Source of the DNA: Gemmatimonadota bacterium
GTDB taxonomy: Bacteria > JBHIER01 > G020348925
Length of the DNA: 64,000 nt
Reading direction: 5' to 3'
NCBI GenBank assembly: GCA_020348925.1
Contig: CP070758.1
Coordinates: forward strand, 3,177,688-3,241,687
The notes beneath the pieces are model-generated. The model did no database searches and was not told where the DNA came from. It was given only the letters and a program-made list of their open reading frames with translations. Shown here piece after piece: positions 13,651 through 50,295 of the stretch; the stretch's first letter is position 1, and every line of letters begins with the position of its first letter. The position numbers and the translations under genes are program-made.

Positions 13651-13750
13651 NNNNNNNNNNNNNNNNNNNNNNNNNNNNNNNNNNNNNNNNNNNNNNNNNN
13701 NNNNNNNNNNNNNNNNNNNNNNNNNNNNNNNNNNNNNNNNNNNNNNNNNN
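13651..13750. other. Assembly gap (100 N)
   Basis: Run of N. Confidence 1.
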
Positions 13751-23899: not shown

Positions 23900-24373
23900 A
23901 TGGTTGAGATCAGTTTCGACTTCAAAGAAAAATTGGACACCACCATCGGTGGCGAGATGCACAGCTACTGTTTTCAGTGCGGCGCGTGCGTCGGGGACTG
24001 CCCCTCGGCGCGATACTCCAAACGTGGATTCAACCCGAGACGTATTGTGCTCCAGACCATAGTGGGTATGGAAGAGGTTCTGCTTGAAGAGGGATCCATC
24101 ATCTGGGAGTGCACCAACTGTTACAACTGTTACGAGCGCTGTCCCCAGGATGTCCGTCCCGTCGAGGTGATTACGGCGATGAAAAACATGGCCGCCAAGA
24201 GAGAGACGAACCCGGAAGATGTTCGCAGCATGGTCAAGACTGTGGAGACAAAGGGTATGACGACCGTGCTTACCGCCCTTGTCGATAAAAGGCGAGTGGA
24301 TTTGGGGCTGAAGACATTGAAGGAGATTCCCGTCTCCGACATTCAAGAGCTATTGACTGAAAAAGAACGATAG
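23900..24373 (+). CDS. hdrC: Heterodisulfide reductase subunit C
   Basis: CFQCGACVGDCP and IWECTNCYNCYERCPQ, directly upstream of hdrB. Confidence 0.9.
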   Translation: MVEISFDFKEKLDTTIGGEMHSYCFQCGACVGDCPSARYSKRGFNPRRIVLQTIVGMEEVLLEEGSIIWECTNCYNCYERCPQDVRPVEVITAMKNMAAKRETNPEDVRSMVKTVETKGMTTVLTALVDKRRVDLGLKTLKEIPVSDIQELLTEKER

Positions 24374-24382
24374 GACCCCGTT

Positions 24383-25264
24383 ATGAGTGAAGAGAAGAAA
24401 TACGTCCCCTTTTTCGGGTGTATGATTTCCGTGAAATATCCTCAATTTGAAGCCGCGGTGAGGAAGACCATGTCCAAAGTGGGAATGACCCTCGTGGATC
24501 TCGACGGCTTCACCTGCTGCCCGGATCCGATCTATTTTAAGTCCTCGGATAAGTTGACCTGGTTGACCATTGCGGCCAGGAACCTCTGCATCGCTGAGGA
24601 AGCCGGATTGGATATAACCACCATGTGCAGCGGATGCACGGCCACGCTTTCCGAGACGAGATATCATCTGGCTCACGATGAGGCTTTGAAAAAGAGGGTT
24701 AACCAGCGACTCAAAAAGATCGGGAAAGAATACAAGGGGACCGTCTCGGTGAGACACATCGTGACCGTTCTCCGGGACGACATCGGCATCGATAAGGTGG
24801 TTGCATCGGTCGTCAAACCGCTCAACGGTCTTCGCGTTGCTGTCCATTACGGCTGCCATCTTCTCAAACCGAGTAAAATCATGCAGGTCGATGATCCCGA
24901 CCGACCGACCATTCTGGAGAGACTTCTGGAGGCCATCGGCGCCGAGCCCGTTCAGCATGACGCCAATCTGCTGTGCTGCGGCAAAGCGTGCATGGAACCG
25001 GATATGCCCGCACAGATGACGTTCGACATACTCACTTCCATCAAGAGAACGGACGTCGATTGCATGGGTCTCATCTGCCCGACCTGTTTCGACGCCTACG
25101 ACCTGGGACAGATTAAAATTTCCAGACAATTCAAGACCAAGTTCGATATTCCCATCATTTACTACTTCCAGCTGCTGGGCTTAGCCCAAGGTCTGAGCCC
25201 TGAGGATGTGGGATTGAATATGCACAAAATCATGCCAGAACCCTTGCTGGCGAAAGTTGCGTGA
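24383..25264 (+). CDS. hdrB: Heterodisulfide reductase subunit B
   Basis: Two CCG domains: FFGC...TCCP...CSGC and HYGCHLLKP...CCG...CPTC. Confidence 0.93.
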
Positions 25265-25274
25265 GTCTAGAACA

Positions 25275-28200
25275 ATGACTGAAACGGAAACCAAAGGCGT
25301 TCTTGTTATCGGCGGAGGAATTGCCGGGATCCAGGCCGCCCTCGATCTGGCCAACTCCCGGGTGAAGGTATACATGGTGGAGAAGGCACCCAGTCTGGGC
25401 GGCCGTATGGCCCAACTCGACAAGACCTTTCCCACCATGGACTGCTCCATATGAATTTTGGGGCCGAAGATGATGGATGTCGGTCGACATCCGAACATTG
25501 AGCTGTACACCTATTCGGAAGTCACTCACGTTGAGGGAAAAGCCGGCGATTTCAGGGTGACGGTCCGCAGGCACCCGAGATACGTGGACGAAGACCTGTG
25601 CACAGGCTGCGGTCAGTGCTCCGACGCTTGTCCAATAGTGGTCCCCAACGAGTTCGATGCCGGGCTCGGAGCCCGTCGAGCGATTTACTCGCCCTTTTCT
25701 CAAGCAGTTCCAAACACCTTCGTCATCGACAGAGAATCGTGTCTCAACGACGACTTCCTCGTCTGCGAAAATTGCAGAAAGGCATGCGAACGGGACGCCA
25801 TCAATTATGATGTGGCACCACAGGACGTGACGATCAGCGTCGGTTCACTCATTGTAGCCACAGGCATCGATGTCTTCGATCCGTACACGATGAAGACCTA
25901 CGGGTACAGCGTTTCACAAAACATCCTCACCGGTCTCGAGTTCGAGCGCATGCTCAACGCCTCCGGACCGACGCAGGGTCATGTCCTGCGACCGACGGAT
26001 CGGCGGGTGCCGAAAAAGATCGCTTTTGTCCAGTGCGTCGGCGTTCGGGGTGAAAACGACTGCCAGTACTGTTCTCTGTTCTGCTGCATGAATTCGGTCA
26101 AAGATGCTTTGCTGGCCAAAGACCATGCCCCTGAGATCGAGGAGATCACCATCTTTTACTCCGACATACGGGCCTTCGGGAAGGGATACGAATCATTCTA
26201 CAATCGCACGAAAGAGCGAGATTATATCAAATATTTCAAGGGCAAACCATCGAAGATCGTCGAAGATCCGGCATCTCATGATCTCACAATATATGTGGAG
26301 GACACACTGACTGGGAAACCTATGGAGGTCGTATCCGATATGGTCATTCTGGCTTCTGCCGGTCTGCCGTCTTCGGACACCTTGAAATTGGCAGACGTGT
26401 TAGGTATTGAACTGGGCCAGGATGGTTTCTTCAAGACGGAAAAGGAGAACGCACAGCTCCTTCGCTCAACGAAGGAAGGCATCTTTCTTTGCGGGTGCGC
26501 TTCAGGCCCGGAAGACATCCCTGATTCCGTGGCTCAGGGCTCCGGAGCTGCCGCCGGTGCGGAAAAGTATGTGGCCGATTTCCGGCTGCCAGAAACCGAA
26601 GAGGAGATCACACCGATCGATGTGGGTGGTCCACCTCGCATTGGTGTTTTCCTGTGCCACTGTGGCATCAACATCGCCGGTGTTCTGGACATCGAAACAA
26701 TGGAAGAATATGTGAGAAGCCTACCGAACGTCGTTCATGTTCAGAATGATCTCTTCCTCTGTTCGGACGGGAGTCAGAAACTGCTTCAAGAAATGATCAA
26801 AGAGCACCGATTGAACCGGGTCGTATCCGCTGCCTGTACACCGAGGACCCACGAGCCGATCTTTCAGGAGACGTGCGCCCGCATCGGGCTCAATCCATAC
26901 CTCTTCGAGATGGTCAACGTGCGCGACCAGTGTTCCTGGGTTCATTCTCAAGAACCGCTTCTCGCCACACAGCGGGCCATGGATCAGATACGGATGGCCG
27001 TCGCCCGGGCCCAATGGCTCGAGCCTCTGGAACAAAAGGAGATCTCCGTGGAGGGATCGGTCCTCGTCATCGGGGGCGGCCCGGCAGGAATTCAGAGCGC
27101 CCTCGATCTGGATGCACAGGGGTTTCCGGTCACCTTGGTGGAAAAGGAAAAAGAGTTGGGTGGGCGATTGCGATTTTTGGACAGGCTCCTACCGGAAAAT
27201 GTGCCGGCGGTGGATCTCCTCCAGCGCAAACTGGCTCAGCTAAAAGCCAGCGGTGTGAGGGTTTTTACCGAAACAGAGATCAAGGAAGTGGGCGGCTTTG
27301 TGGGAAACTTCGAAGTGAGCACGACGAAAGAAACGCTCAAAGTCGGTTCCATTATTCTGGCCAGCGGCTCTGACGTGTACGATCCGAAGGATGAGTACGA
27401 TTATGAAAAATACTCCAATGTGCTGACCAACATGGATCTGGAGGGGATTTTCGCCCAAACCGACGGTGGTGAGGCTCTCATCAACGGTACAAAACCCAAA
27501 CGGGTGGCTTTCATCCAGTGTGTCGGCTCACGAAATGAGGACAATCCCCACTGTTCCCGCATCTGCTGTCCGACAACGGTGAAACAGGCTCTCCGGTTCA
27601 GAGAACAGGGGACAGATGTTGCAGTGTTTTATCGCGACATGAGGACGGTGGGCCACGGGGCCGAGGAGCAGTACCGCGCAGCCCGGGGGGTGGGCGTCGT
27701 CTTCATTCGATACCCCGACGACCAGAAACCTGTGGTGACAAAAAGCGGAAAAGGTCTTCGCATTCAAGCCTTCGGGACAATGCTGAACGACACCGTGAAT
27801 ATGGAGGTGGATGCCGTCATTCTGGCCGCCGGAATGGTTCCCAAAGAGCCTGATACGAATACGTTCAAGGAGATGTTAAAAGTGCCCAGAAGCCCGGACG
27901 GTTTCATGATGGAGCGCCATCCGAAACTCGGGCCGGTGGAAACGACAACCGACGGGATTTTTCTGGCAGGCTGCGTGCAGAGTCCCAAAAGTGCGGCCGA
28001 ATCCATGGCCCAGGCCTCGGCCGCGGCCGGCAAGGCGGCCTCCCTCGTCTGCCGGGAGAGGATCAAACTCGACCCGACCATCTGTAGGGTGAACGAAGCT
28101 CTCTGCCGGGGATGTAGAACGTGCGTCTCCATCTGTGATTTCCACGCGCCTGAATTGGTTGAGACATCTCCCGGAATTTTTGTAGCACGCATCAACGAAG

Positions 28201-28322
28201 CCTTGTGCAAAGGCTGCGGAACCTGCGCCGCCTGGTGTCCGACGGAGGCGATCGCCGCCCAGCATTTCACCGATCAGCAGATCGAGGCCATGCTGGAGAC
28301 GATGTTGGAGGAGGGATTATAG
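25275..28322 (+). CDS. hdrA: HdrA-like flavo-iron-sulfur selenoprotein (1015 aa, Sec60), two HdrA modules in tandem
   Basis: The ORF-track pieces 25257-25454 and 25458-28322 are in frame and read [28 protein letters not shown], with UGA at the second Cys of the HdrA DCxxC motif. Two GGG.AG FAD motifs, two QCVG motifs, an internal [10 protein letters not shown] domain and ferredoxin domains. Confidence 0.92.
25475..25492 (+). promoter_or_regulatory. Bacterial SECIS-like hairpin for UGA 25452-25454
   Basis: GGATGTC-GGTC-GACATCC, with the loop starting 27 nt after the UGA. An identical copy follows the UGAs of the second hdrA. Confidence 0.8.
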
Positions 28323-28430: not shown

Positions 28431-28907
28431 ATGACTGAGAAAAAGACGACAGCAAAGAAGAAAACAGCGAAGAAAACTGAGAAACAGAAATTCGTACCCA
28501 AAATAGTGGCTTTTGCCTGCAACTGGTGTTCCTATGCCGGGGCCGACAATGCCGGCGTGAACCGCATCCAGTACTCACCTCATTTCCGGGTCATTCGCAC
28601 CATGTGTTCGGGACGGGTCAAGCCGGCCTTTGTTCTGAAAGCCTTCGAGATGGGAGCCGACGGGGTGCTCGTCTCCGGATGTCACTTCGGCGACTGCCAC
28701 TATATCTTCGGAAATTATCGGGCTGTCGAGCTCTTTGAAAAGACAAAGAAACTCGTTCATCTTTTGGGTCTGGAGGATGAGCGCCTTCGCCTGGAATGGG
28801 TCTCGGCCGCCGAGGGCATCCGATGGGCCGAACTGATCAACGAGTTCGTCGATCAGATCACGCGGCTGGGACCGAGTCCTCTTTCAGAAAATGGGAAAAA
28901 ATCATGA
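28431..28907 (+). CDS. mvhD: MvhD/FlpD [2Fe-2S] subunit
   Basis: AFACNWCSYAGAD, MCSGRV, GCHFGDCHY and RLRLEWVSAAEG motifs, with a Lys-rich N-tail. Confidence 0.94.
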   Translation: MTEKKTTAKKKTAKKTEKQKFVPKIVAFACNWCSYAGADNAGVNRIQYSPHFRVIRTMCSGRVKPAFVLKAFEMGADGVLVSGCHFGDCHYIFGNYRAVELFEKTKKLVHLLGLEDERLRLEWVSAAEGIRWAELINEFVDQITRLGPSPLSENGKKS

Positions 28908-30043
28908 TGAACATTGAAACGATCGCCAAAGCGACACACGTCAATGACTGTCTGGAGTGCGGCAAGTGCACGGCCAATTGCCCCATTTCGAGGTTCACCG
29001 ACGCCTATTCACCCCGGCTCAATGTGGGCAGGTTCATTCAGGGCTACGCGGAGGAACTGTTGCAGGACGAACGCCTCTGGGATTGTCTCACCTGCGGCAT
29101 GTGCAACGTCCGCTGCCCGGCCGATGTCAAATACACCGAGTTCATGAAGCGGATACGCCTTGAGGCGTTCCAGAACGGAAGGGAAGCTACGTGTTCCCAC
29201 GGCGGTGCCATCCAATCCCTCATGCGAATCATGACGTCGCCGACCATGAACCAGAATCGGCTGGAATGGGTGCCGAAGGAGTTCACATACTCCGATAAAG
29301 GGGAGCTGGTCTATTTCGTGGGGTGCCTGCCCTATTTCGACGCGTTCTTCACCGATCTCGAGGTCAACACCCTGGACACGGCCAAAAGCGTTCTCAAGAT
29401 CCTGAATCATCTCGATATCACGCCCGTGCTCCTGAAAAACGAGCGCTGCTGCGGCCACGATCTGCTCTGGTCCGGTGATTTGGAGAACTTTAAAAAGCTG
29501 GCGAAACACAATATTACCGAGATCAATAAGAGCGGTGCCAAGAGAGTGCTTTTCTCCTGCGCCGAAGGATACAGGACGTTTAAGCTCGATTATCCCGGAT
29601 ATGTCGATGGGTTTGACATCGATGTTGTCCATATTTCAGAATTCATGGCTGAACACATCTCCTCGAACGGACTGAAATTGAATCGATTCGATCGCAGGGT
29701 GACGTACCAGGATCCCTGCCGTCTGGGACGACACATGAACATCTACGATCCCCCCAGGGAAGTGATGAATAGCATACCGGGATTGGAACTGGTGGAGATG
29801 CGGAAGAACAGAAATACGGCCGTCTGCTGCGGGACGAGCGCCTGGATGAATTGCAACCTGACCTCCAAGCAGATTCAGGCCTATCGTTTAAAGAGCGCCA
29901 AGACCACAGGCGCCGATCTCTTGGTCACCACTTGCCCCAAATGTTACATACACTTCAAGTGTGCCCAGAAGGACGAAAACATCTCCGATCAGATCGGAAT
30001 TGACATACAGGACTTAACTGTTTTAACAGCCTCAGTTTTGTGA
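28904..30043 (+). CDS. HdrD/GlpC-like Fe-S protein (2x[4Fe-4S] plus 2 CCG domains)
   Basis: CLECGKCTANCP, CLTCGMCNVRCP, FVGC...RCCG and YQDPCRLGR...CCG...CPKC motifs. Confidence 0.9.
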   Translation: MMNIETIAKATHVNDCLECGKCTANCPISRFTDAYSPRLNVGRFIQGYAEELLQDERLWDCLTCGMCNVRCPADVKYTEFMKRIRLEAFQNGREATCSHGGAIQSLMRIMTSPTMNQNRLEWVPKEFTYSDKGELVYFVGCLPYFDAFFTDLEVNTLDTAKSVLKILNHLDITPVLLKNERCCGHDLLWSGDLENFKKLAKHNITEINKSGAKRVLFSCAEGYRTFKLDYPGYVDGFDIDVVHISEFMAEHISSNGLKLNRFDRRVTYQDPCRLGRHMNIYDPPREVMNSIPGLELVEMRKNRNTAVCCGTSAWMNCNLTSKQIQAYRLKSAKTTGADLLVTTCPKCYIHFKCAQKDENISDQIGIDIQDLTVLTASVL

Positions 30044-30101: not shown

Positions 30102-32570
30102 ATGGTTGAAGATGAACGCCGAATAGGTGTCTTTGTTTGTGAGTGCGGAATCAATATCTCCGCCACCGTCGATTGCGATGAGGTCACCGAGTACGCGAGA
30201 ACCTTGCCCGATGTGGTCTTCTCCATCAAGAACAGATACACCTGTGCCGAACCGGGCCAGGAGGAGATCAAAAGGTTTATCAAAGAGGAGAACCTCAATC
30301 GGGTCGTCGTCGCATCCTGCACACCTCGCATGCACGAGCCGACTTTCAGACAGTGCTGCGCCGACGCCGGCCTCAACCCCTACCTCTTTGAGATGGCCAA
30401 CATCCGGGAGCACTGCAGCTGGGTGCACCACGACAGAAAAGAGGCCACGAAAAAGGCGAAGGATACGATCAAGTTGGCCGTGGCACGGGCGAGAAAACTT
30501 GAATCACAGGAGGAGCTGACAGTCCCCGTCACCCAGGCCGCCCTCGTTGTCGGAGGCGGCATAGCCGGAATGCAGGCTTCCCTGGACCTGGCAGATGCCG
30601 GCTATCAAGTTTATCTTGTCGAGAAGGAGCCGACCATTGGGGGGTTGATGTCTTATATCAATAAGATCTTCCCCACAATGGACTGAGCGATATGAATCCT
30701 CGGTCCGAGGATGATGGATGTCGGTCGACATCCCAAGATTGAACTTCTCACTTATTCGGAAATAGAAAACGTCACCGGTTACATCGGCAATTTTCATGTC
30801 AATGTTCGCAAGAAGGCCAGGTATGTGGATGAGGACGCCTGCACCGCCTGTGAAAAATGTGCCGAGGTGTGTCCTGTTGTGGCCTTCGACGAGCATCAAT
30901 TGGGATTGGCCTCGAGGAAAGCCATATATATTCCCTTCCCCCAGTCTGTCCCGGCCTCATACCTCATCAACATGGAGGATTGTCTCGGCACCAATCCGAT
31001 TGCCTGCGGGAAATGTTTGGAGGTCTGTGATCCGAAGTGCATTGATTACGACGAGAAAGACAGTATCATCGAACTCGACGTCGGGGTCATCATTGTGGCC
31101 ACGGGAATGGATGTGATCGACCCGACCGTTCTGGATGAATACCATTACACGGAGTTCGAAAATGTCATGACTTCCTGGGAGTTCGAGATCCTGACAGGTC
31201 CCGGCTATGTGACCGGCAGCGAACTTCTCAGACCGACCGACCGCAAGGTTCCAAAATCCATCGGGTTTATCCAGTGCGTCGGTTCTCGGGACGATAAGAG
31301 AGGCCATCCTTACTGCAGCAACATCTGTTGCATGAATACGGTCAAAGACACCCTCTACCTCAAGGAACATTACCCCGATATGGAATGCTACGTCTACTAC
31401 ATGGACATCCGAACCTTCGGAAAGCAATACGAAGACCTGTATAAACGCAGCAAGGAGATGGGCGTCAGGTACATCAGAGGCATCCCCGGTGACGTCGAGG
31501 AGGACCCGGAGACCAAGAACGTGATAGTGGCTGTGGAGAACACGACCACCGGAAAGCTTGAACATCACGAGCTGGATATGCTGGTGCTATCCGTCGGCGT
31601 CGAACCGCGGGTCGAGACGGCGGATATTCAGAAAATCTTGACCCTCTCGAAAGCCCCCGACGGTTTCCTGGCGGAAAGCCACTACCAGCTCAATCCCATC
31701 GATTCGCCGACCGGAGGCATCTTCCTAGCCGGATGCTGTGAATCACCCAAGGACGTGAAGGGATCCGTCACCCAGGCATCCGGTGCGGCAGCACGGGCGG
31801 AGCGGCTCCTCAGTCAGCGGAGGGTCAAGGTGGAGGCCATCACCTCCGAGATCGATCCGGATCTGTGCACCTCGTGCGGTATCTGCGTGAAAGTCTGTCC
31901 CTATAAAGCCATCCGGATCGAAAAGAAGAAGGCTCCGGCGGAAGTTATTGAGGCGGCGTGCAAAGGGTGTGGCACCTGCGCTGCAGAGTGCAAGTTCGGA
32001 GCCATCACCATGAAACACTTCACCGACGATCAGATCCTCTCCATGATCGATGCCATGCTCGAGGAGAAACCGGAGGAGAAGATCTGCACCTTTGCCTGCA
32101 ACTGGTGCTCCTATGCCGGGGCGGATCTCGCAGGCCTCTCGAGAATCCAGTACCCGCCCAATGCGAGGATCATACGAACGATGTGCAGCGGCCGCGTGGA
32201 TGAAAAATTCATCTGGTACGCTTTTCAGAAAGGTGCTCCGGTGGTCCTGGTTTCAGGTTGCCATTTCGTTGACTGCCACTACATCGATGCCAACAGGTGG
32301 ACCCAGAAGCGGATTGAAAAAATATGGGACAAGCTGGAACAGAAGGGTATTCGCCCCGAGCGGTTGCAGCTCGAGTGGTGCTCAGCTGCCGAAGCCAAGA
32401 GATGGCAAAGCATAATGCGTGCGGCCGAAAACTTGAGAAAAACAGTATCAAAGCAAGAGATTGAGGAGACGATACGGATCCTCAGCAATGGAGACAAACC
32501 AAAAACAAAGGCGAAGGCTGAGGCGAAGGGCAAGAAGAAGCCCAAAGTGACAGCCGCTTCATCGGAATAA
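30102..32570 (+). CDS. hdrA: HdrA-MvhD fusion selenoprotein (822 aa, Sec195 and Sec198)
   Basis: The ORF-track pieces 30102-30686 and 30711-32570 join in frame through [29 protein letters not shown]-terminal RIGVFVCECG, FAD motif, QCVGSR, and C-terminal MvhD motifs (FACNWCSYAGAD, MCSGRV, GCHFVDCHY). Confidence 0.9.
30696..30733 (+). promoter_or_regulatory. Tandem SECIS-like hairpins after the UGA pair
   Basis: ATCCTCG-GTC-CGAGGAT (30696-30712) and GGATGTC-GGTC-GACATCC (30716-30733). Confidence 0.72.
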
Positions 32571-32593: not shown

Positions 32594-32728
32594 ATGGCTG
32601 AAGAAGCGAAGTTCAAGTGTTTGCGATGCGGACATGAATATACGGACACATACACACCCGGAGTTCCCCAGGAACGGACCTGTCCAAAATGCACGAGCAA
32701 CAGTGTCCGCCGGATGAAAGAGAAATAA
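32594..32728 (+). CDS. 44-aa zinc-ribbon/rubredoxin-like protein
   Basis: MAEEAKFKCLRCGHEYTDTYTPGVPQERTCPKCTSNSVRRMKEK with two CxxC motifs and a GAGGAG RBS. Below the ORF-track cutoff. Confidence 0.8.
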   Translation: MAEEAKFKCLRCGHEYTDTYTPGVPQERTCPKCTSNSVRRMKEK

Positions 32729-32752: not shown

Positions 32753-32971
32753 ATGACTGAAAAAACTGCGAAGAAGAAGAGATCTCGCATCGTTGTGAAG
32801 AGAGAGTGGTGTAAAAACTGCGCTATCTGTGTCGAATTCTGTCCGAAAGACGTCTTGGTCATGAAGGATGGATTCCCGGAAGTGGTCCATATTGAAAATT
32901 GTACGCTGTGCCAACTGTGCGAGCTGCGGTGTCCTGATTTTGCTATTGAAGTGTACGAAGATGAGACTTGA
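32753..32971 (+). CDS. korD: 2x[4Fe-4S] ferredoxin, delta subunit (set 2)
   Basis: CKNCAICVEFCP and CTLCQLCELRCPDFAI. Confidence 0.92.
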   Translation: MTEKTAKKKRSRIVVKREWCKNCAICVEFCPKDVLVMKDGFPEVVHIENCTLCQLCELRCPDFAIEVYEDET

Positions 32972-32996
32972 TTCTACATAAACCAACTGGAGACTC

Positions 32997-34142
32997 ATGG
33001 TAACGAAAGAAAAAAACCGAATACGAGTGATGACGGGCAATGAGGCCTGTGCGGAGGGTGCTCTGGCCGCGGGTTGTCGCTTTTTCGCCGGTTACCCCAT
33101 AACCCCTTCTTCAGAGATCGCTGAGATCCTGTCGCGGGAACTTCCGAAAGTTGGCGGTAAGTTCATTCAGATGGAGGATGAGATCGCTGCCATGGGCGCC
33201 GTCATCGGTGCTTCCCTTGCCGGATCCAAATCCCTGACGGCTACGAGCGGACCGGGCTTCTCGCTGAAACAGGAGAATATCGGATACGCATCGATGGCCG
33301 AAGTCCCGTGCGTCATCGTCAACGTCATGAGAGGCGGACCGAGCACAGGGTTGCCGACCCTTCCCTCGCAAAGTGACGTCATGCAGGCCCGCTGGGGCAC
33401 CCACGGAGATCATCCGATCATTGCCTTGGCACCTTCGAGCGTGCGGGAGTCTTTTGACTGGACTGTGCGAGCTTTCAACCTATCCGAAACATACCGAGTA
33501 CCGGTTGTTCTTCTCTTGGATGAAATTGTCGGCCATACCAGTGAAAAAGTTGTGCTTCCGGATACGAGCGAGATACAAATTGTGGAGCGCCAAAAGGGTG
33601 ATCCGAAAAACAAGGATTACCTCCCCTATAAACAGACGGAATCGGATATTCCCCCCATGATCAGTTTCGGAGAGGGCATACGGTTTCACGTCACAGGTCT
33701 CTGTCACGATGAAACAGGATTCCCAACCAACGATTCCCAAAAGATCGACCTTCTGCTCCGTCGGCTCAATCGGAAAATCGAGCGTTATCGTGACCAGATC
33801 ACCGACAACCAAAGGGATCAACTCGATGACGCGGATGTGGCCGTCTTTGCTTACGGTTCAACGTCCCGCTCTGCCCGCTGGGCTGTTCGCCGAGCCCGGG
33901 AAGAGGGTCTTCGTGTCGGTCTGTTTCGACCGATCGTCCTATGGCCATTTCCTGAGGATGAAGTGTTCTCCATCGCTCAAAAAGTGCATCACATCATTGT
34001 TCCGGAGATGAACCTGGGACAGATGGCTCACGAGGTGGAATGGGCCAGCCGAGGTTCGACCGACGTTATTCGAATCAACCGTATTGATGGTGATCCTGTG
34101 CGACCACAGGTCATCCTCGAAAAAATCAAAGAGGTTGCTTAG
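32997..34142 (+). CDS. korA: 2-oxoacid:ferredoxin oxidoreductase alpha subunit (set 2)
   Basis: AGYPITPSSE, QMEDEIA, TSGPGFSLKQE and RGGPSTGLPT motifs. Confidence 0.94.
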   Translation: MVTKEKNRIRVMTGNEACAEGALAAGCRFFAGYPITPSSEIAEILSRELPKVGGKFIQMEDEIAAMGAVIGASLAGSKSLTATSGPGFSLKQENIGYASMAEVPCVIVNVMRGGPSTGLPTLPSQSDVMQARWGTHGDHPIIALAPSSVRESFDWTVRAFNLSETYRVPVVLLLDEIVGHTSEKVVLPDTSEIQIVERQKGDPKNKDYLPYKQTESDIPPMISFGEGIRFHVTGLCHDETGFPTNDSQKIDLLLRRLNRKIERYRDQITDNQRDQLDDADVAVFAYGSTSRSARWAVRRAREEGLRVGLFRPIVLWPFPEDEVFSIAQKVHHIIVPEMNLGQMAHEVEWASRGSTDVIRINRIDGDPVRPQVILEKIKEVA

Positions 34143-34143
34143 C

Positions 34144-34953
34144 ATGTTTGATTACGGAGCCTATTTGCGCAAAGACAAATTTCCACTTATTTGGTGTTCC
34201 GGCTGCGGCGATGGAATTGCCCTGAAGGCAATGCTGCGGGCCATCGATCGGATCGGCCTCTCGAAAGATGAAATCGTCATGGTTTCCGGCATCGGTTGCT
34301 CGAGCCGGCTGCCCGGTTACGTCGATTTCAACACGCTGCACACCACTCACGGTCGAGCGATTGCTTTCGCCACCGGTGTAAAGATGGCCAAACCGGAGCT
34401 TACCGTCATCGTGGTTACCGGCGACGGTGATGCTACAGCCATAGGTGGAAATCATTATATACATGCGGCACGACGAAATATCGATCTGACGGTGATTCTA
34501 TTCAACAACTGGATCTACGGCATGACAGGCGGTCAAGTTTCCCCCACAACTCCCTTTGGCAAACGAGCCAGCACTGCTCCCTACGGCAGTACGGAAAACG
34601 CTTTCAACATCAGCGGTCTGGCCGAAGCTGCCGGGGCCAGTTTCGTCGCCAGAGAAACAGTATTCAGACCACAGGTTCTGGACAAGTTTATTGAAAAGGC
34701 TATCCGGAAAAAGGGATTTTCGGTCGTGGAGGTCTTCACACCCTGTCCGACAACATACGGTCGCCGGAACAAAATGCGGTCTGTCATAGAAATGATGAAT
34801 TGGCTCAAGGATCATGCTGTTCCGAAGAGCCGTGCCGAGAAAATGGACCCGCAAGAGCTGGAGGAAAAAATCATCACCGGAGTGCTTGTCGACCTCGATC
34901 TCCCCGAATACACCGAAGAGTATCAAAAGCTAATCGATCGAGTCAAGTCATAA
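34144..34953 (+). CDS. korB: 2-oxoacid:ferredoxin oxidoreductase beta subunit (set 2)
   Basis: WCSGCG, SGIGCSSR, HTTHGRA, GDGD...NN and YGMTGGQ motifs. Confidence 0.94.
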   Translation: MFDYGAYLRKDKFPLIWCSGCGDGIALKAMLRAIDRIGLSKDEIVMVSGIGCSSRLPGYVDFNTLHTTHGRAIAFATGVKMAKPELTVIVVTGDGDATAIGGNHYIHAARRNIDLTVILFNNWIYGMTGGQVSPTTPFGKRASTAPYGSTENAFNISGLAEAAGASFVARETVFRPQVLDKFIEKAIRKKGFSVVEVFTPCPTTYGRRNKMRSVIEMMNWLKDHAVPKSRAEKMDPQELEEKIITGVLVDLDLPEYTEEYQKLIDRVKS

Positions 34954-35046
34954 AACCGAATAACTGGTTTCGAAGGGAACGCAATAAACGAGGGAGGGGA
35001 AGAATCAGTTATTTTTTTATCTTTAATTACAGATAAGGAGAACGAC

Positions 35047-35592
35047 ATGAGCTTTCGAACCGAAATCCGACTAAGCGGTGAGGGTGGCCAGGGATTGGTT
35101 TTGGCTGGGAAAGTCTTGGCCGAAGCAGCGGCCATATATGACGACAAGAACGCTACCCAAAGCCAATCCTACGGCCCTGAGGCGCGAGGAGGTGCGAGCC
35201 GTTCGGAGGTCATCATCTCCGATGATGAGATCGACTACCCCAAAGCGGTCAATTTGGATCTGCTCTTGGCCCTGACCCAGGAGTCCTGCAGTCGATATTG
35301 GAAGGATTTAAAGGACGACGGTATACTCCTCGTCGATTCAGATTCAGTCAAGGACATTCCTGAGGGTTCGTTCAAAGTATTCAAGGTACCGATCATTGCT
35401 ATCGCAGAGCAGGAAGTCGGAAAAGCTCTGGTGGCAAATATCGTTGCCCTTGGGATCATCACCGGCCTGGCCAAGGTCGTCTCCGAGGAGGCAGTGGAAG
35501 CGGCAATCCTGGCGAGAGTCCCGAAGGGCACCGAGGAACTCAATGTGAAAGCCTTCAAAGCCGGATTACAGGCAGCCAAAGATCTCAGTTAA
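35047..35592 (+). CDS. korC: 2-oxoacid:ferredoxin oxidoreductase gamma subunit (set 2)
   Basis: EIRLSGEGGQG and QSYGPEARGGAS motifs. Confidence 0.94.
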   Translation: MSFRTEIRLSGEGGQGLVLAGKVLAEAAAIYDDKNATQSQSYGPEARGGASRSEVIISDDEIDYPKAVNLDLLLALTQESCSRYWKDLKDDGILLVDSDSVKDIPEGSFKVFKVPIIAIAEQEVGKALVANIVALGIITGLAKVVSEEAVEAAILARVPKGTEELNVKAFKAGLQAAKDLS

Positions 35593-35620: not shown

Positions 35621-38600
35621 ATGTTCGATCCCTACACTCGACTCGAGGCCCGAGTCGGAGAACTGGGTAACCATCACCGAAAATATCTGAAGAACATATC
35701 AGCGCATAAGGACACGTTGATCGATCGCCTGGAAGCCTGCGGTAAGATCGATCAGGTCCACTTCCGCCTGACCGCCCCCGATCTCGCCAGCGAAATGGAC
35801 ACGGTCATGGCCGTTGGCCGGAATGTGGAGGAGAAACTTACCTTTCTGGGCTGCTATTATGCCCTCCAGTTCCTCAACATGAACATCAGTGCCATCGATG
35901 TGCTTGCCCTCAATCTGGCAACTTCGGACGACAGGTATACCGTCTACAAAGGATTCATGAGACAGATTGGGAATGAGTTCAGGGCGCTAACCGCCTGTCA
36001 CATGGATAAGCTCCTGAATCTCTTTCTCGACAAGAACGGCACCCCGGAATATGTGATCTGCGGGGTCGGCACGCGGGCCGATCAGGATGATATTGATGTG
36101 GGGATTATTGATGATGGATCGCGAAAACGAAAAGATCTTAACCTCGCCGTTGGTCGACTCCAGCACAGTATGCTCAAGCAGTCGGTTCCCCTCCACCTCT
36201 ACCTCTCCGAACATGTCGGAACGCAGAGTTATTCCGCCTCGATCGCGGAGTATAACGACCTCCTCAAAAAAGAGATACAGGATTTCGTCATTATCACTGA
36301 GATGCTCGGGGCAGCCCCCATCACCGGAAGCAACCATCTCTTTCGAAAATTCAGACGGGAGGTCACCCAGCGCTATTACTATCAGCGACAAGGTGACAAC
36401 CGTTTCCATGAAGGCTATTTGCGGGGCCTGCTGGGCGAGGTCAGATCGCTCTTGATCAGGAGGATGAAGACGAACAGTATCAATCCCAAGGACGACGGTT
36501 TGCGGATGCTCAAGGGACTCCTCTTTGCAGGCAAATCCATTTTCAACATTCGAAAAGTCAATGCCTGGGATATTTTAAAACAGTTGGGGGAACGCGATCC
36601 CGACCATACGGAGATATTTCAAACTCTCGACAGATCCCTCACTTTTCTGGAAATGTTCAGATTTCTCTATCAGCTCTTCGTTGTTCAAGAGGACGAAATT
36701 TATGTGGGTGGAGAGGACACCATTTCGAACTTGCAATCCGTAGCCAAAGCCATGGGCTACCAGGATGTTGGGGTCATCAAAGCCTGGGATCACCTGCTCA
36801 TCCACTACTATGAGCATATAGACGGCATAAAAGATCCCATCGAAATTCTTCTCAAGGACGTAATACGACATCTGGAGCGAATAAGTGTCTTCTCGGTAAT
36901 GCTCAGCACACGTCAGCTTGAAACACAGTACGAGGGGAATTTGGTTATAGATTTTCTAAAGGCTTCCCGTTTTTTCAGGGGGACGAAATTCTGGGACGAT
37001 GTTCTGGGAGCCCTTGAAACAGGAGATGGACAACTTTTGGAGCGATTCGTAACCGACTTCAACTCCCTGGACACAGAACGAAGGATCAAATGGATCGCTC
37101 AGTACGCAGACTGGAGCAACTATGCTTTTATGGTCCTCATGAGGCTGCTCGTCATCCTGTATCAAAACAGGAAAAAGGTTGCTTCAGAAAAACTTTTTAA
37201 CGAACTCAACGAAGCTTCACTGGAGGCGCTGAGCCAGAGTCATGATGTTATTCACAGAATAACCCGTATCTTCAACCATTATCCGAAACTGGTCAATAAT
37301 TACTTGTTGGCACTATCCGAGGAAGATCAACTCAGGTTTAAGAAGCTCCTTGAGGGAAATGTCTGGGAGGAGGAAGTGGCTCAGTTGAGAGATCACCTGG
37401 TGAATCTCTGTCAGCTTCATTGTTGTAGTAATAGATATTTCAAACGTTTTTTTCAAAGAATTATCAATGCGTATCCTGAATACATTCAATACTTGGATAA
37501 TACGGATCGGTTAAAAGAGTTGGCCAAGGGTCTTTTCGGGAAGATCGATAATCTGAAAACCTTTCGCGAAAAAAAAGATCAGCTTGGGCATTATCATGAT
37601 ATCGAATTCTTTCGGGTGGGCCTTGAGACATTGGCCGGTGCTCCTATAGAACAAACCAACGCCGAGTTCACGGAATTTTCAGACAACTATCTTCAAACGC
37701 TTTTCGATATCTGTAAGCAGGAGGTGGAACAGGAACGCGAGGGAAAATTGAAGACGGAAGATCTCTTGGCCGTCTTTGCGGCAGGCGGACATGCCCGGGA
37801 ACAAGCTTTCGATGATGACTACGATATTATTGTTCTTCTGAATTCAAGCGATGAAGCCTTGAGAAAAAAATGTACAACCATCATCAGTAAGATGAATACC
37901 GAGCTTGTCAAACGGGGAACACTCCCCCACTTCCGTTTTGCGGAGCGGTACGGCCACTACGTCACACTTTTTTCAGAACTCGAAGAACTCTTCGAAAGTA
38001 ATAAAGAGGATTCATTTATCGACAAATCCCAAATTCTCGGAGCAAGAATGGTCGTGGGCAGCCGGAGATTCGGAAAAGCTTTTGAACAATTGATCATACA
38101 ACCCCATATATACAATAAGAAAGATACCTATATTCAGCAGATGGCACAGGAGATTTTTGCTCGCCATGTGAATGAAAACGGGGTCAAGGAAGATGGTTTC
38201 AACATCAAAGAGAATAGCGGAGGACTCCGTGATATTGAAATGGTGATGCTCATGTACAAAGCAGCTCTTCATATTCAGACCCCCGTATCTATGAAATTGT
38301 TCGATGAGCTATCGGACAAGATTCCAGACAAAGGTTCTGAGCTGAAGCGGTTGTCCGGAATCTTCTCTTTTCTGAAACGCCTGCGCGACATATACCGCCT
38401 TACGGTGGCTGCCGAAGATACCATATACCTTCAAAACCTCGATAGGGTATCACCCATTATGAATTTTAAGGATTCGTCGACACAGAGCGCTTCCCAGCAA
38501 CTCATGATGGCATACAGAGAGAATATGAAACAGGGATGGTCTCTTGTTTCGGAGTTTATCTCGGATATCGGGCATCACCCTGCACGTGAGATAAGGGATA

Positions 38601-38626
38601 CCGCAATCCAAGAGAACACCCCATGA
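35621..38626 (+). CDS. Divergent GlnE/GlnD-like protein with two nucleotidyltransferase modules
   Basis: CGVGTRADQDDIDVGII...INPKDDGLRMLK and FAAGGHAREQAFDDDYDIIVL...NIKENSGGLRDIE, in a 1001-aa protein of GlnE-like size. Confidence 0.7.
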   Translation: MFDPYTRLEARVGELGNHHRKYLKNISAHKDTLIDRLEACGKIDQVHFRLTAPDLASEMDTVMAVGRNVEEKLTFLGCYYALQFLNMNISAIDVLALNLATSDDRYTVYKGFMRQIGNEFRALTACHMDKLLNLFLDKNGTPEYVICGVGTRADQDDIDVGIIDDGSRKRKDLNLAVGRLQHSMLKQSVPLHLYLSEHVGTQSYSASIAEYNDLLKKEIQDFVIITEMLGAAPITGSNHLFRKFRREVTQRYYYQRQGDNRFHEGYLRGLLGEVRSLLIRRMKTNSINPKDDGLRMLKGLLFAGKSIFNIRKVNAWDILKQLGERDPDHTEIFQTLDRSLTFLEMFRFLYQLFVVQEDEIYVGGEDTISNLQSVAKAMGYQDVGVIKAWDHLLIHYYEHIDGIKDPIEILLKDVIRHLERISVFSVMLSTRQLETQYEGNLVIDFLKASRFFRGTKFWDDVLGALETGDGQLLERFVTDFNSLDTERRIKWIAQYADWSNYAFMVLMRLLVILYQNRKKVASEKLFNELNEASLEALSQSHDVIHRITRIFNHYPKLVNNYLLALSEEDQLRFKKLLEGNVWEEEVAQLRDHLVNLCQLHCCSNRYFKRFFQRIINAYPEYIQYLDNTDRLKELAKGLFGKIDNLKTFREKKDQLGHYHDIEFFRVGLETLAGAPIEQTNAEFTEFSDNYLQTLFDICKQEVEQEREGKLKTEDLLAVFAAGGHAREQAFDDDYDIIVLLNSSDEALRKKCTTIISKMNTELVKRGTLPHFRFAERYGHYVTLFSELEELFESNKEDSFIDKSQILGARMVVGSRRFGKAFEQLIIQPHIYNKKDTYIQQMAQEIFARHVNENGVKEDGFNIKENSGGLRDIEMVMLMYKAALHIQTPVSMKLFDELSDKIPDKGSELKRLSGIFSFLKRLRDIYRLTVAAEDTIYLQNLDRVSPIMNFKDSSTQSASQQLMMAYRENMKQGWSLVSEFISDIGHHPAREIRDTAIQENTP

Positions 38627-50195: not shown

Positions 50196-50295
50196 NNNNN
50201 NNNNNNNNNNNNNNNNNNNNNNNNNNNNNNNNNNNNNNNNNNNNNNNNNNNNNNNNNNNNNNNNNNNNNNNNNNNNNNNNNNNNNNNNNNNNNNN
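50196..50295. other. Assembly gap (100 N)
   Basis: Run of N. The genes on either side are on opposite strands and both lack their 5' ends. Confidence 1.

Follow-up and report, generated by a model that had tools for sequence, protein, structure and literature searches.

The subject of this analysis is an hdrA2-type gene at positions 30102–32570 of a 64,000-nucleotide (nt) stretch of Gemmatimonadota bacterium DNA (hereafter, the window; contig CP070758.1 of assembly GCA_020348925.1, positions 3,177,688 to 3,241,687), in which two in-frame TGA codons (UGA1 and UGA2 in the mRNA) replace both cysteines of the HdrA CxxC motif. Judging from comparative sequence data, we consider it reasonably likely that the gene encodes a full-length HdrA2 with two selenocysteines (Sec, U) in a UxxU motif, that these residues are inserted with the aid of tandem selenocysteine insertion sequence (SECIS) elements, and that the protein forms a bifurcating module with the products of neighbouring genes. 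The two TGA codons had been pointed out in a preliminary description of the gene; the RNA hairpins that follow them were not seen there, and they are the most informative part of the present results. HdrA selenoproteins as such are already known, and the present gene is a rare variant among them; the novelty appears to lie in the double-Sec UxxU motif and in the presence of a second hairpin.

The reading frame on the forward strand starts with an ATG at 30102, with a GGGAG box 8–9 nt on its 5′ side, and its only in-frame stops before the TAA at 32568–32570 are the TGAs at 30684–30686 and 30693–30695. Translation with TGA as U gave 822 residues with a calculated mass of 91.9 kDa, in agreement with the length and the product size of about 91 kDa in the preliminary description, and placed U195 and U198 in the context IFPTMD-U-A-I-U-ILGPR. 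Open reading frame (ORF) calling with translation table 11 split the gene into 30102..30686 (194 aa) and 30711..32570 (619 aa), as had been expected of standard gene callers. The full-length protein matched the NCBIfam model HdrA2 NF040770 with 1127.3 bits (cut-off, 1100), residues 7–787 falling on profile positions 1–776/777. The solved HdrA 5odc_A (residues 2–651) aligned end to end with residues 4–654 without large gaps (E = 1.4e-235), and its Cys194 and Cys197 fell on U195 and U198; both the replacement of the two cysteines and the HdrA-like character of the frame on either side of the TGAs were thus borne out. The alignment to 5odc_A takes in the HdrA core, with its N-terminal Fe-S domain, its FAD/thioredoxin-reductase-like domain, and its inserted and C-terminal ferredoxin domains. 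MvhD 5odc_D aligned with residues 658–780 (E = 6.4e-37). The Pfam search gave an N-terminal FAD (flavin adenine dinucleotide)/Rossmann domain, several 4Fe-4S Fer4 domains, and an FlpD/MvhD domain at residues 661–775 (PF02662, E = 8.7e-44). By these matches, the protein is an HdrA–MvhD fusion of the HdrA2 type with the domain architecture of NF040770, as the preliminary description had also concluded for its fusion with two Sec codons.

The two TGAs are not a product of chance or sequencing error, as judged from their recurrence in other sequences. Contigs from two public runs of one study, which covered 30402–30722 and 30402–30727, were identical to the window, including both TGAs. Because these runs may be the source samples of the genome, they are not independent, and conservation across genomes is the stronger argument. 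We scanned one genome per species (185,579 species) with the pattern [FY]PTxD-TGA-x-x-TGA-I and obtained 13 loci, all of which were open HdrA frames with DUAIUILGPRMM. A looser pattern matched 82 stretches; the HdrA genes in this set were the 13 known loci and one additional locus (L267, with UAVUV), and the remainder were chance matches. Beyond the gene in the window, the total was therefore 14 UxxU loci in 13 species genomes, whose phylum labels include Cloacimonadota, Stahlbacteria and Neomarinimicrobiota, with one genome labelled Thermoplasmata. In a metagenome collection, 22 of 25 pattern matches were genuine UxxU contigs; the other three (L196, L211 and L215) were rejected, having matched by chance in a frame with many stops.

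Both TGAs were thus kept in 36 further sequences from different assemblies (14 genome and 22 metagenome loci). Across the 37 sequences, the two codons between the TGAs showed mainly synonymous variation (GCG, GCA, GCT or GCC; ATA, ATT or ATC), with replacements in three sequences only (Val for Ile in L194 and L267, Ser for Ala in L205). The 14 UxxU genes, which share 65–81% protein identity, each have exactly two TGAs and no further lesion. The preservation of both TGAs in HdrA frames that are otherwise uninterrupted indicates that read-through is under selection. On the strength of these loci, the UxxU HdrA2 is not unique to this genome and marks a small clade.

An exchange of Cys and Sec codons among homologues, for which a DNA-level alignment had been suggested as a check, was observed among CxxU, CxxC and UxxU relatives. 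A pattern scan for CxxU genes gave at least 120 stretches, and 125 distinct CxxU and 12 CxxC sequences made up the set for the hairpin comparison; the position of UGA1 was TGY in all of them. In 40 genomes of relatives, the four closest orthologues (60–66% identity) carried D-C-S-I-U and one carried D-C-S-I-C. The UxxC form had no match with the strict pattern in the species-genome scan, and two matches to a loose pattern were both chance occurrences in non-HdrA frames. In a FastTree phylogeny of 137 rows (111 CxxU, 13 UxxU and 13 CxxC; L064 was omitted, with fewer than 400 residues available), the 13 UxxU rows formed one clade with an SH-like support of 100; this clade sits within the CxxU genes and has the CxxU gene L188 as its sister. 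The simplest history that fits the tree has CxxC giving rise to CxxU and CxxU, in a single event, to UxxU.

The genome bin contains the machinery for Sec insertion, the presence of which had been named as a further check. Its tRNA-Sec scored 65.8 bits (cut-off, 47) and was called as SeC with anticodon TCA by ARAGORN, and selA (598.8 bits), selB (396.5 bits; genome positions 2518263–2520152) and selD (372 bits) were all above their cut-offs and clustered in the order selD-selB-selA; selD itself carries one TGA. The 5.04-Mb bin is 96.3% complete with 0.52% contamination, and consists of about 205 pieces joined by 100-N spacers. Such spacers at 13651–13750 and 50196–50295 delimit the piece of the window that carries the UxxU gene (13751–50195). 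ARAGORN detected 40 tRNA genes in the whole bin, with, for example, no tRNA-Ile among them; statements of absence for this genome are therefore weak. TGA terminates ordinary genes, such as hdrB at 25262–25264 and a 1001-aa gene at 35621–38626, indicating that the genetic code is standard; on this ground, a genome-wide change in the meaning of TGA (code 4 or 25) was ruled out. Above-cut-off tRNA-Sec was also present in four of five other UxxU genomes checked.

Other HdrA and MvhD paralogues in the genome carry single in-frame TGAs. A genome-wide screen for TGA-x(1-4)-TGA in open frames, which was crude and judged by eye, gave 51 candidates, and protein-like flanks together with tandem hairpins were seen by eye only in the UxxU hdrA2. 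Two MvhD paralogues, at genome positions 1544746 and 4137280, have Sec at different positions (GG-U-HPGDC; the second Cys of CNWC), and both fit the report that Sec in bacterial FrhD/MvhD proteins is found at either of the two archaeal sites (PMC1976440).

Two short hairpins follow the UGA codons of the UxxU gene (Table 1), and both occur side by side, 3′ of UGA2, in all 14 UxxU genes. Hairpin 1 begins immediately 3′ of UGA2, its loop being 16 nt from UGA1 and 7 nt from UGA2. The loop of hairpin 2 (-9.4 kcal/mol) is 27 nt from UGA2 and 36 nt from UGA1. Hairpin 1 had seven of seven Watson–Crick pairs and a free energy of -7.8 kcal/mol in all 14 UxxU genes. Seven Watson–Crick pairs were found in none of the 125 CxxU sequences, for which the median free energy was +0.9 kcal/mol and the best value -7.0 kcal/mol (L161), and the corresponding region of the 12 CxxC genes had a median of +1.4 kcal/mol. 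Neither the CxxU sister gene L188 nor any of six CxxU relatives and paralogues compared had hairpin 1. Hairpin 2 was present with at least six of seven pairs in the same register in 92 of the 125 CxxU sequences, 88 of the 125 having the GGUC loop, and it also occurred in two CxxU paralogues of this genome; it was not present in the 12 CxxC sequences compared.

The hairpin region was also unusual in its coding. The residue after GP was Arg in 14 of 14 UxxU genes, its AGG codon lying in the 3′ arm of hairpin 1 and pairing with the 5′ arm, versus Lys in 116 of the 125 CxxU sequences. Over 398 conserved degenerate codon columns of the 14 UxxU genes, the mean normalised entropy was 0.815. It was zero in only seven columns, all of them at residues 199–208, which correspond to hairpin 1 and to the 5′ arm and loop of hairpin 2, and the lowest 10-column window was residues 199–210 (0.105). 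Selection at the RNA level is visible on the hairpin region in these values. When 36 sequences (29 distinct) were aligned, the two helices were 98.8% paired, compared with 30–49% when the partners were slid. Hairpin 1 was 100% paired in the 29 distinct sequences, with one compensatory change from C-G to G-C brought about by two synonymous substitutions (L202), and two pairs of hairpin 2 had changed on both sides in the 36-sequence alignment. The middle base of the hairpin 1 loop varied, being mostly U, with A or G (G-A-C, G-G-C) in 5 of the 37 sequences. In L267, the first pair of hairpin 1 was retained as G-U despite the Ile-to-Val replacement.

According to the available text of a 2026 review, the consensus for bacterial SECIS (bSECIS) elements comprises a loop of 3–9 nt, a stem of 4–16 bp, a G in the first two loop positions, a UGA-to-loop distance of 16–37 nt, and a minimum free energy of -7.5 kcal/mol or lower (PMC13188914). 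Hairpin 1 agrees with all of these items with respect to UGA1 (16 nt, -7.8 kcal/mol), and hairpin 2 agrees with all of them with respect to UGA2 (27 nt, -9.4 kcal/mol). Since the 7-nt spacing of hairpin 1 to UGA2 falls outside the consensus, hairpin 1 could serve UGA1 only. A 7-bp hairpin with a GUC loop was also found 3′ of the Sec codon in the mvhD paralogue at genome position 1544746.

Three further observations concern the hairpin region. The CxxU HdrA2 gene nearest to having hairpin 1 was L161, with six of seven Watson–Crick pairs, -7.0 kcal/mol, and Arg after GP; it may represent a pre-adapted or a relic state, and in the tree it does not adjoin the UxxU clade. In L267 (1464–1540), from the bin labelled as a Thermoplasmata archaeon, the UxxU HdrA2 gene with UAVUV has both bacterial-type in-frame hairpins, which points either to a binning error or to a transfer into an archaeon, where a bacterial-type SECIS is not expected to work. 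In four sediment metagenome runs, the contig depth was about 300–1900 at 30682–30741, compared with about 3–40 on the flanks. Because the HdrA SECIS region is highly conserved in nucleotides, it recruits contigs from many other organisms; the depth there is dominated by the HdrA genes of these organisms and is no measure of abundance. Variant letters at 30698, 30701 and 30704 fall on third-codon positions and belong to other organisms that lack hairpin 1.

These data suggest a model in which both Cys codons of the CxxC motif beside the FAD domain have become UGA and would be decoded as Sec (U195 and U198) in a full-length 92-kDa protein. Hairpin 2 would be the ancestral HdrA SECIS and serve the canonical UGA2, and hairpin 1, an extra hairpin confined to the UxxU clade, would serve the newer UGA1. 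With UGA1 in the ribosomal A site, hairpin 1, which starts 9 nt downstream, would still be folded just outside the entry to the mRNA channel and would present SelB–Sec-tRNA. Three codons later hairpin 1 would be melted, and hairpin 2 would serve UGA2, as in CxxU HdrA. This placement of hairpin 1 resembles that of the minimal element of Escherichia coli fdhF, which is 17 nt long and lies 11 nt downstream. It is very probable, in our view, that read-through at both UGAs yields a single protein, and quite probable that the residue inserted at both is Sec. For hairpin 1, we favour the reading of a SECIS dedicated to UGA1, with SelB presumed to bind each hairpin, though with a fair measure of doubt. 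If true, nature would here have found a compact way to insert two neighbouring Sec residues. Bacterial SECIS elements lie within the coding sequence and constrain the placement of Sec; the tandem layout would show a route to Sec residues three positions apart and may be useful for engineering diselenide or multi-Sec proteins.

Several observations weigh against this model or limit it. The 86-nt segment was no more stable than its shuffles (z = -1.54), 12 of 200 shuffles folding as well, and the minimum free energy structure of 30675–30760 prefers a helix that pairs the UGA1 region (30680–30687) with the 5′ arm of hairpin 1 (30699–30706). We rejected this alternative helix on three grounds: it is broken by the L202 change at position 18, which is compensated in hairpin 1; it would pair the variable loop base; and it leaves the conserved 3′ arm and the switch from Lys to Arg unexplained, both of which are explained by hairpin 1 alone. 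The covariation in hairpin 1 is thin, with one compensatory pair in one sequence and mostly conservation elsewhere. Because UxxU has a single origin, the association of hairpin 1 with UGA1 represents one evolutionary event and not 14 independent ones. The 16-nt spacing of hairpin 1 is at the lower limit of the consensus. With regard to the cell, the sel genes sit on other pieces of the bin than the UxxU hdrA2, one of the five other UxxU genomes checked (G045) had no tRNA-Sec above the cut-off, and the substrates and partners of the protein are assigned from homology and gene order only.

The distances also allow an alternative in which hairpin 2 directs Sec insertion at both UGAs, since its distance of 36 nt from UGA1 lies within the 16–37 nt range, at the upper limit, and one SECIS could serve both codons. 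Hairpin 1 would then be auxiliary and not a SelB site, acting in ribosome pausing, in keeping release factor 2 off the stops, or in setting the spacing of hairpin 2. The 3-nt loop of hairpin 1, with its variable middle base, would be compatible with such a role, and one shared SECIS has been proposed, in the accessible text, for the UxxU group 4 [NiFeSe] hydrogenases (PMC13582414). We consider this alternative unlikely, because hairpin 1 satisfies every bSECIS item for UGA1, arose with UGA1, and was kept in 37 of 37 UxxU sequences despite the cost in frozen synonymous sites and the change from Lys to Arg; moreover, a like stem and loop follows another Sec codon in this genome. It also counts against a single SECIS that the distance between UGA and SECIS in E. 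coli fdhF tolerates little change. Much less probable still is a recoding of one or both UGAs as Cys by a SelB-dependent tRNA-ReC (selC*), so that the mature motif would be CxxU, UxxC or CxxC. Genes resembling tRNA-ReC are enriched in genomes with UxxU hydrogenases (about 56% vs about 2.3%, in the accessible text of PMC13582414), and one tRNA could be missing from a bin that is 96.3% complete and has 40 tRNAs. Against this, ARAGORN gave one TCA tRNA and one ordinary 73-nt tRNA-Cys(GCA) only, and the eight weaker matches to RF01852 were ordinary Leu, Ser, Trp, Lys or Thr tRNAs, so that no tRNA-ReC (a second SelC-like tRNA with anticodon UCA or GCA) was found by ARAGORN or RF01852 in this incomplete bin. 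In two other UxxU genomes, the four next-best RF01852 matches examined were tRNA-Leu and tRNA-Trp. A TGY codon would, furthermore, be simpler than the upkeep of a UGA and a hairpin.

The idea that the gene does not function as one protein, being a pseudogene, an assembly or sequencing error, or a source of separate 194-aa and 619-aa proteins, has a negligible probability in our view. It would fit the two ORFs given by standard gene calling and the results from a collection of 5.8 billion protein clusters, in which no full-length protein of the UxxU clade was present among the best 120 of 8000 scored candidates; these 120 were 65–68% identical, and all 120 carried DCSIC. Against it stand the conservation of both TGAs in 36 further sequences from different assemblies, the mainly synonymous evolution of the codons between and around them, the presence of exactly two TGAs and no other lesion in each of the 14 UxxU genes, and the agreement of the contigs of two runs. 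A split at residue 195 would also halve the FAD-binding fold. 

What the second Sec might do can be considered from the known HdrA site. Cys197 of one HdrA protomer ligates, in trans, the N-terminal [4Fe-4S] cluster of the other protomer, and the passages on HdrA in the same report describe a ligand role for this second Cys only and none for the first (PMC9012536). The statement in the preliminary description that both cysteines are Fe-S ligands near the FAD therefore holds for the second, and for the first it finds no counterpart in those passages. In a 2026 cryo-electron microscopy study of Methanococcus Hdr, density at Sec197 and the neighbouring Cys was read as a selenenylsulfide between the FAD and the cluster; a Cys–Sec197 selenenylsulfide relay was proposed, and the study calls the role of the pair unresolved in the text available (PMC13518236). 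In the UxxU protein, a Se–Se pair would stand where the low-potential branch begins, with the FAD on one side and the partner subunit's N-terminal [4Fe-4S] cluster on the other. Because Sec is usually found at redox-active Cys only, the UxxU clade would speak, by comparison, for redox activity of both residues. If true, the first Cys of the HdrA CxxC motif would work with Sec197 in catalysis and be more than a bystander, and UxxU, CxxU and CxxC proteins offer a natural series for testing the redox role of both residues.

Compared with canonical Sec-HdrA, which has a CxxU motif with a single Sec at about position 197 and occurs in Methanococcales, Methanopyrus and many anaerobic bacteria, the UxxU gene shares the family, the motif, the canonical Sec position (U198 on Cys197) and the register of the GGUC-loop hairpin. 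It differs in having UGA for the first Cys as well and an extra hairpin before the canonical one; it thus has the canonical UGA of the Sec-HdrA family and departs from the single Sec under which the family is catalogued. The previous statement that HdrA typically has one Sec is in accord with the literature in the parts available to us: HdrA canonically has one Sec near position 200 (PMC4989117), and in the 2026 review HdrA is entered as a CxxU protein with one Sec, UxxU being given for other families only (PMC13188914). The splitting of UxxU genes by gene callers, together with a catalogue that holds HdrA with one Sec (PMC13188914), points to an annotation gap.

With HdrA2, the protein shares a score above the family cut-off, an HdrA part with a C-terminal MvhD, and adjoining genes of the HdrB/C type. 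HdrA2 is best known as the HdrA–MvhD fusion of the Methanosarcina acetivorans HdrA2B2C2 complex. The UxxU gene differs from it in being bacterial and in having an HdrC/B fusion as its putative partner, and full-length public relatives named HdrA2 carry DCSIC. In a bacterium, the coenzyme M–coenzyme B heterodisulfide (CoM-S-S-CoB) is an unlikely substrate.

Until the Lokiarchaeal genes were described, no HdrA with multiple Sec residues was known, according to the sections available of that report (PMC4989117). Like the UxxU gene, the Lokiarchaeota genes have multiple Sec residues, the canonical one among them in every case, and the extra ones replace conserved Cys. Unlike it, they are archaeal and have one eukaryote-like SECIS in the 3′ untranslated region (UTR) for up to six UGAs over about 2 kb (PMC4989117). 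One of the five positions given for them may correspond to the first Cys of the CxxC motif (PMC4989117). Our two UxxU patterns gave no Asgard-labelled locus across the 185,579 species genomes. The UxxU group 4 [NiFeSe] hydrogenases likewise have, in bacteria, a UxxU motif that goes back to CxxC at a metal or redox site; their UGAs are also 9 nt apart, and relatives with CxxU exist. They belong to another family, their SECIS architecture is the same in CxxU and UxxU forms, and a UxxC form exists, as far as the available text shows (PMC13582414). In the HdrA2 UxxU clade, in contrast, there is an extra hairpin and UxxC was not found in our scans. Eukaryotic SelL also has a UxxU redox motif, for which a diselenide was proposed, and differs in its thioredoxin fold and in having a single 3′-UTR SECIS for both codons (cited in the available text of PMC4989117).

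In a text search of the literature, exclusive of figures, supplements and subscription papers, neither a UxxU HdrA nor a tandem arrangement of bacterial SECIS elements was found described. The match on "two selenocysteine" together with "heterodisulfide reductase" concerned formate dehydrogenases (PMC3971608) and not HdrA, and was discarded. The clade may be the first natural bacterial case in which two dedicated mini-SECIS elements, 3 nt apart, serve UGAs 9 nt apart, combined with a redox-active Se–Se pair (a diselenide, or a selenol beside a Se ligand) that starts the low-potential branch; we put this combined claim forward tentatively, with the chances slightly against it.

The features of the window that bear on this system are listed in Table 1.

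Table 1. Positions of the UxxU hdrA2-type gene, its recoding elements and the neighbouring genes in the window
Feature	Position	Strand	Remarks
hdrC	23900–24373		
hdrB	24383–25264		Ends with TGA at 25262–25264
Fused double-HdrA selenoprotein gene	25272–28322	+	About 1016 aa; one Sec, UGA at 25452–25454, motif DCSIU
Free-standing mvhD	28431–28907	+	158 aa; PF02662, E = 2.8e-52; between the double hdrA and the hdrCB fusion
hdrC/hdrB fusion	28796–30043	+	Fer4_8 and two CCG domains; true start may be downstream of 28796
UxxU hdrA2-type gene	30102–32570	+	HdrA (residues about 4–654) fused to MvhD (about 658–780); 822 codons and TAA
UGA1 (codon 195)	30684–30686	+	Replaces first Cys of CxxC (Cys194 of 5odc_A); non-canonical Sec position
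UGA2 (codon 198)	30693–30695	+	Canonical HdrA Sec position (Cys197 of 5odc_A; Cys197/Sec197 of methanogen HdrA)
Hairpin 1 (proposed SECIS for UGA1)	30696–30712	+	17 nt; 7-bp stem AUCCUCG/CGAGGAU, all Watson–Crick; loop GUC
Hairpin 2 (canonical HdrA SECIS)	30716–30733	+	18 nt; 7-bp stem GGAUGUC/GACAUCC; loop GGUC
CxxC...CxxC zinc-ribbon gene	32594–32728	+	44 aa; FmdB-family TIGR02605, 23.3 bits, below cut-off of 31.3
2-Oxoacid:ferredoxin oxidoreductase, four genes (delta, alpha, beta, gamma)	32753–35592	+	Directly after the zinc-ribbon gene

The double HdrA gene upstream provides an internal control on the same contig, because its UGA is followed by a SECIS of the hairpin 2 type and no hairpin 1. 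Its product scored 1116 bits on NF040770, above the cut-off, when three matched stretches were summed, and its first half has DCSIU and no N-terminal Fe-S domain. It fits the complementary "self-heterodimer" pattern of the Moorella/ANME-type HdrA, as far as this is set out in the text available (PMC9012536).

The hdrCB fusion directly upstream of the UxxU gene had its best NCBIfam matches to TfrB, GlpC and HdrC, all below their cut-offs. An hdrCB homologue was located upstream in 11 of 11 UxxU loci with an upstream flank, adjoining the UxxU gene in 10 and lying 3.5 kb off in L061, and its product is probably the catalytic partner of the UxxU HdrA2. The zinc-ribbon gene was located downstream in all eight UxxU loci with a downstream flank, and also in the CxxU orthologues L022–L024 and L188. 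The order hdrCB fusion–hdrA2–zinc ribbon was thus conserved, CxxU orthologues included. Taken together, the gene order and domain content suggest that the UxxU HdrA2, the HdrC/B fusion and the zinc-ribbon protein probably constitute a flavin-based bifurcating or confurcating module that exchanges electrons with ferredoxin. The 2-oxoacid:ferredoxin oxidoreductase encoded next to it may be a metabolic link through ferredoxin. L059 and L064 likewise have homologues of this oxidoreductase close to their UxxU gene, there on the opposite side.

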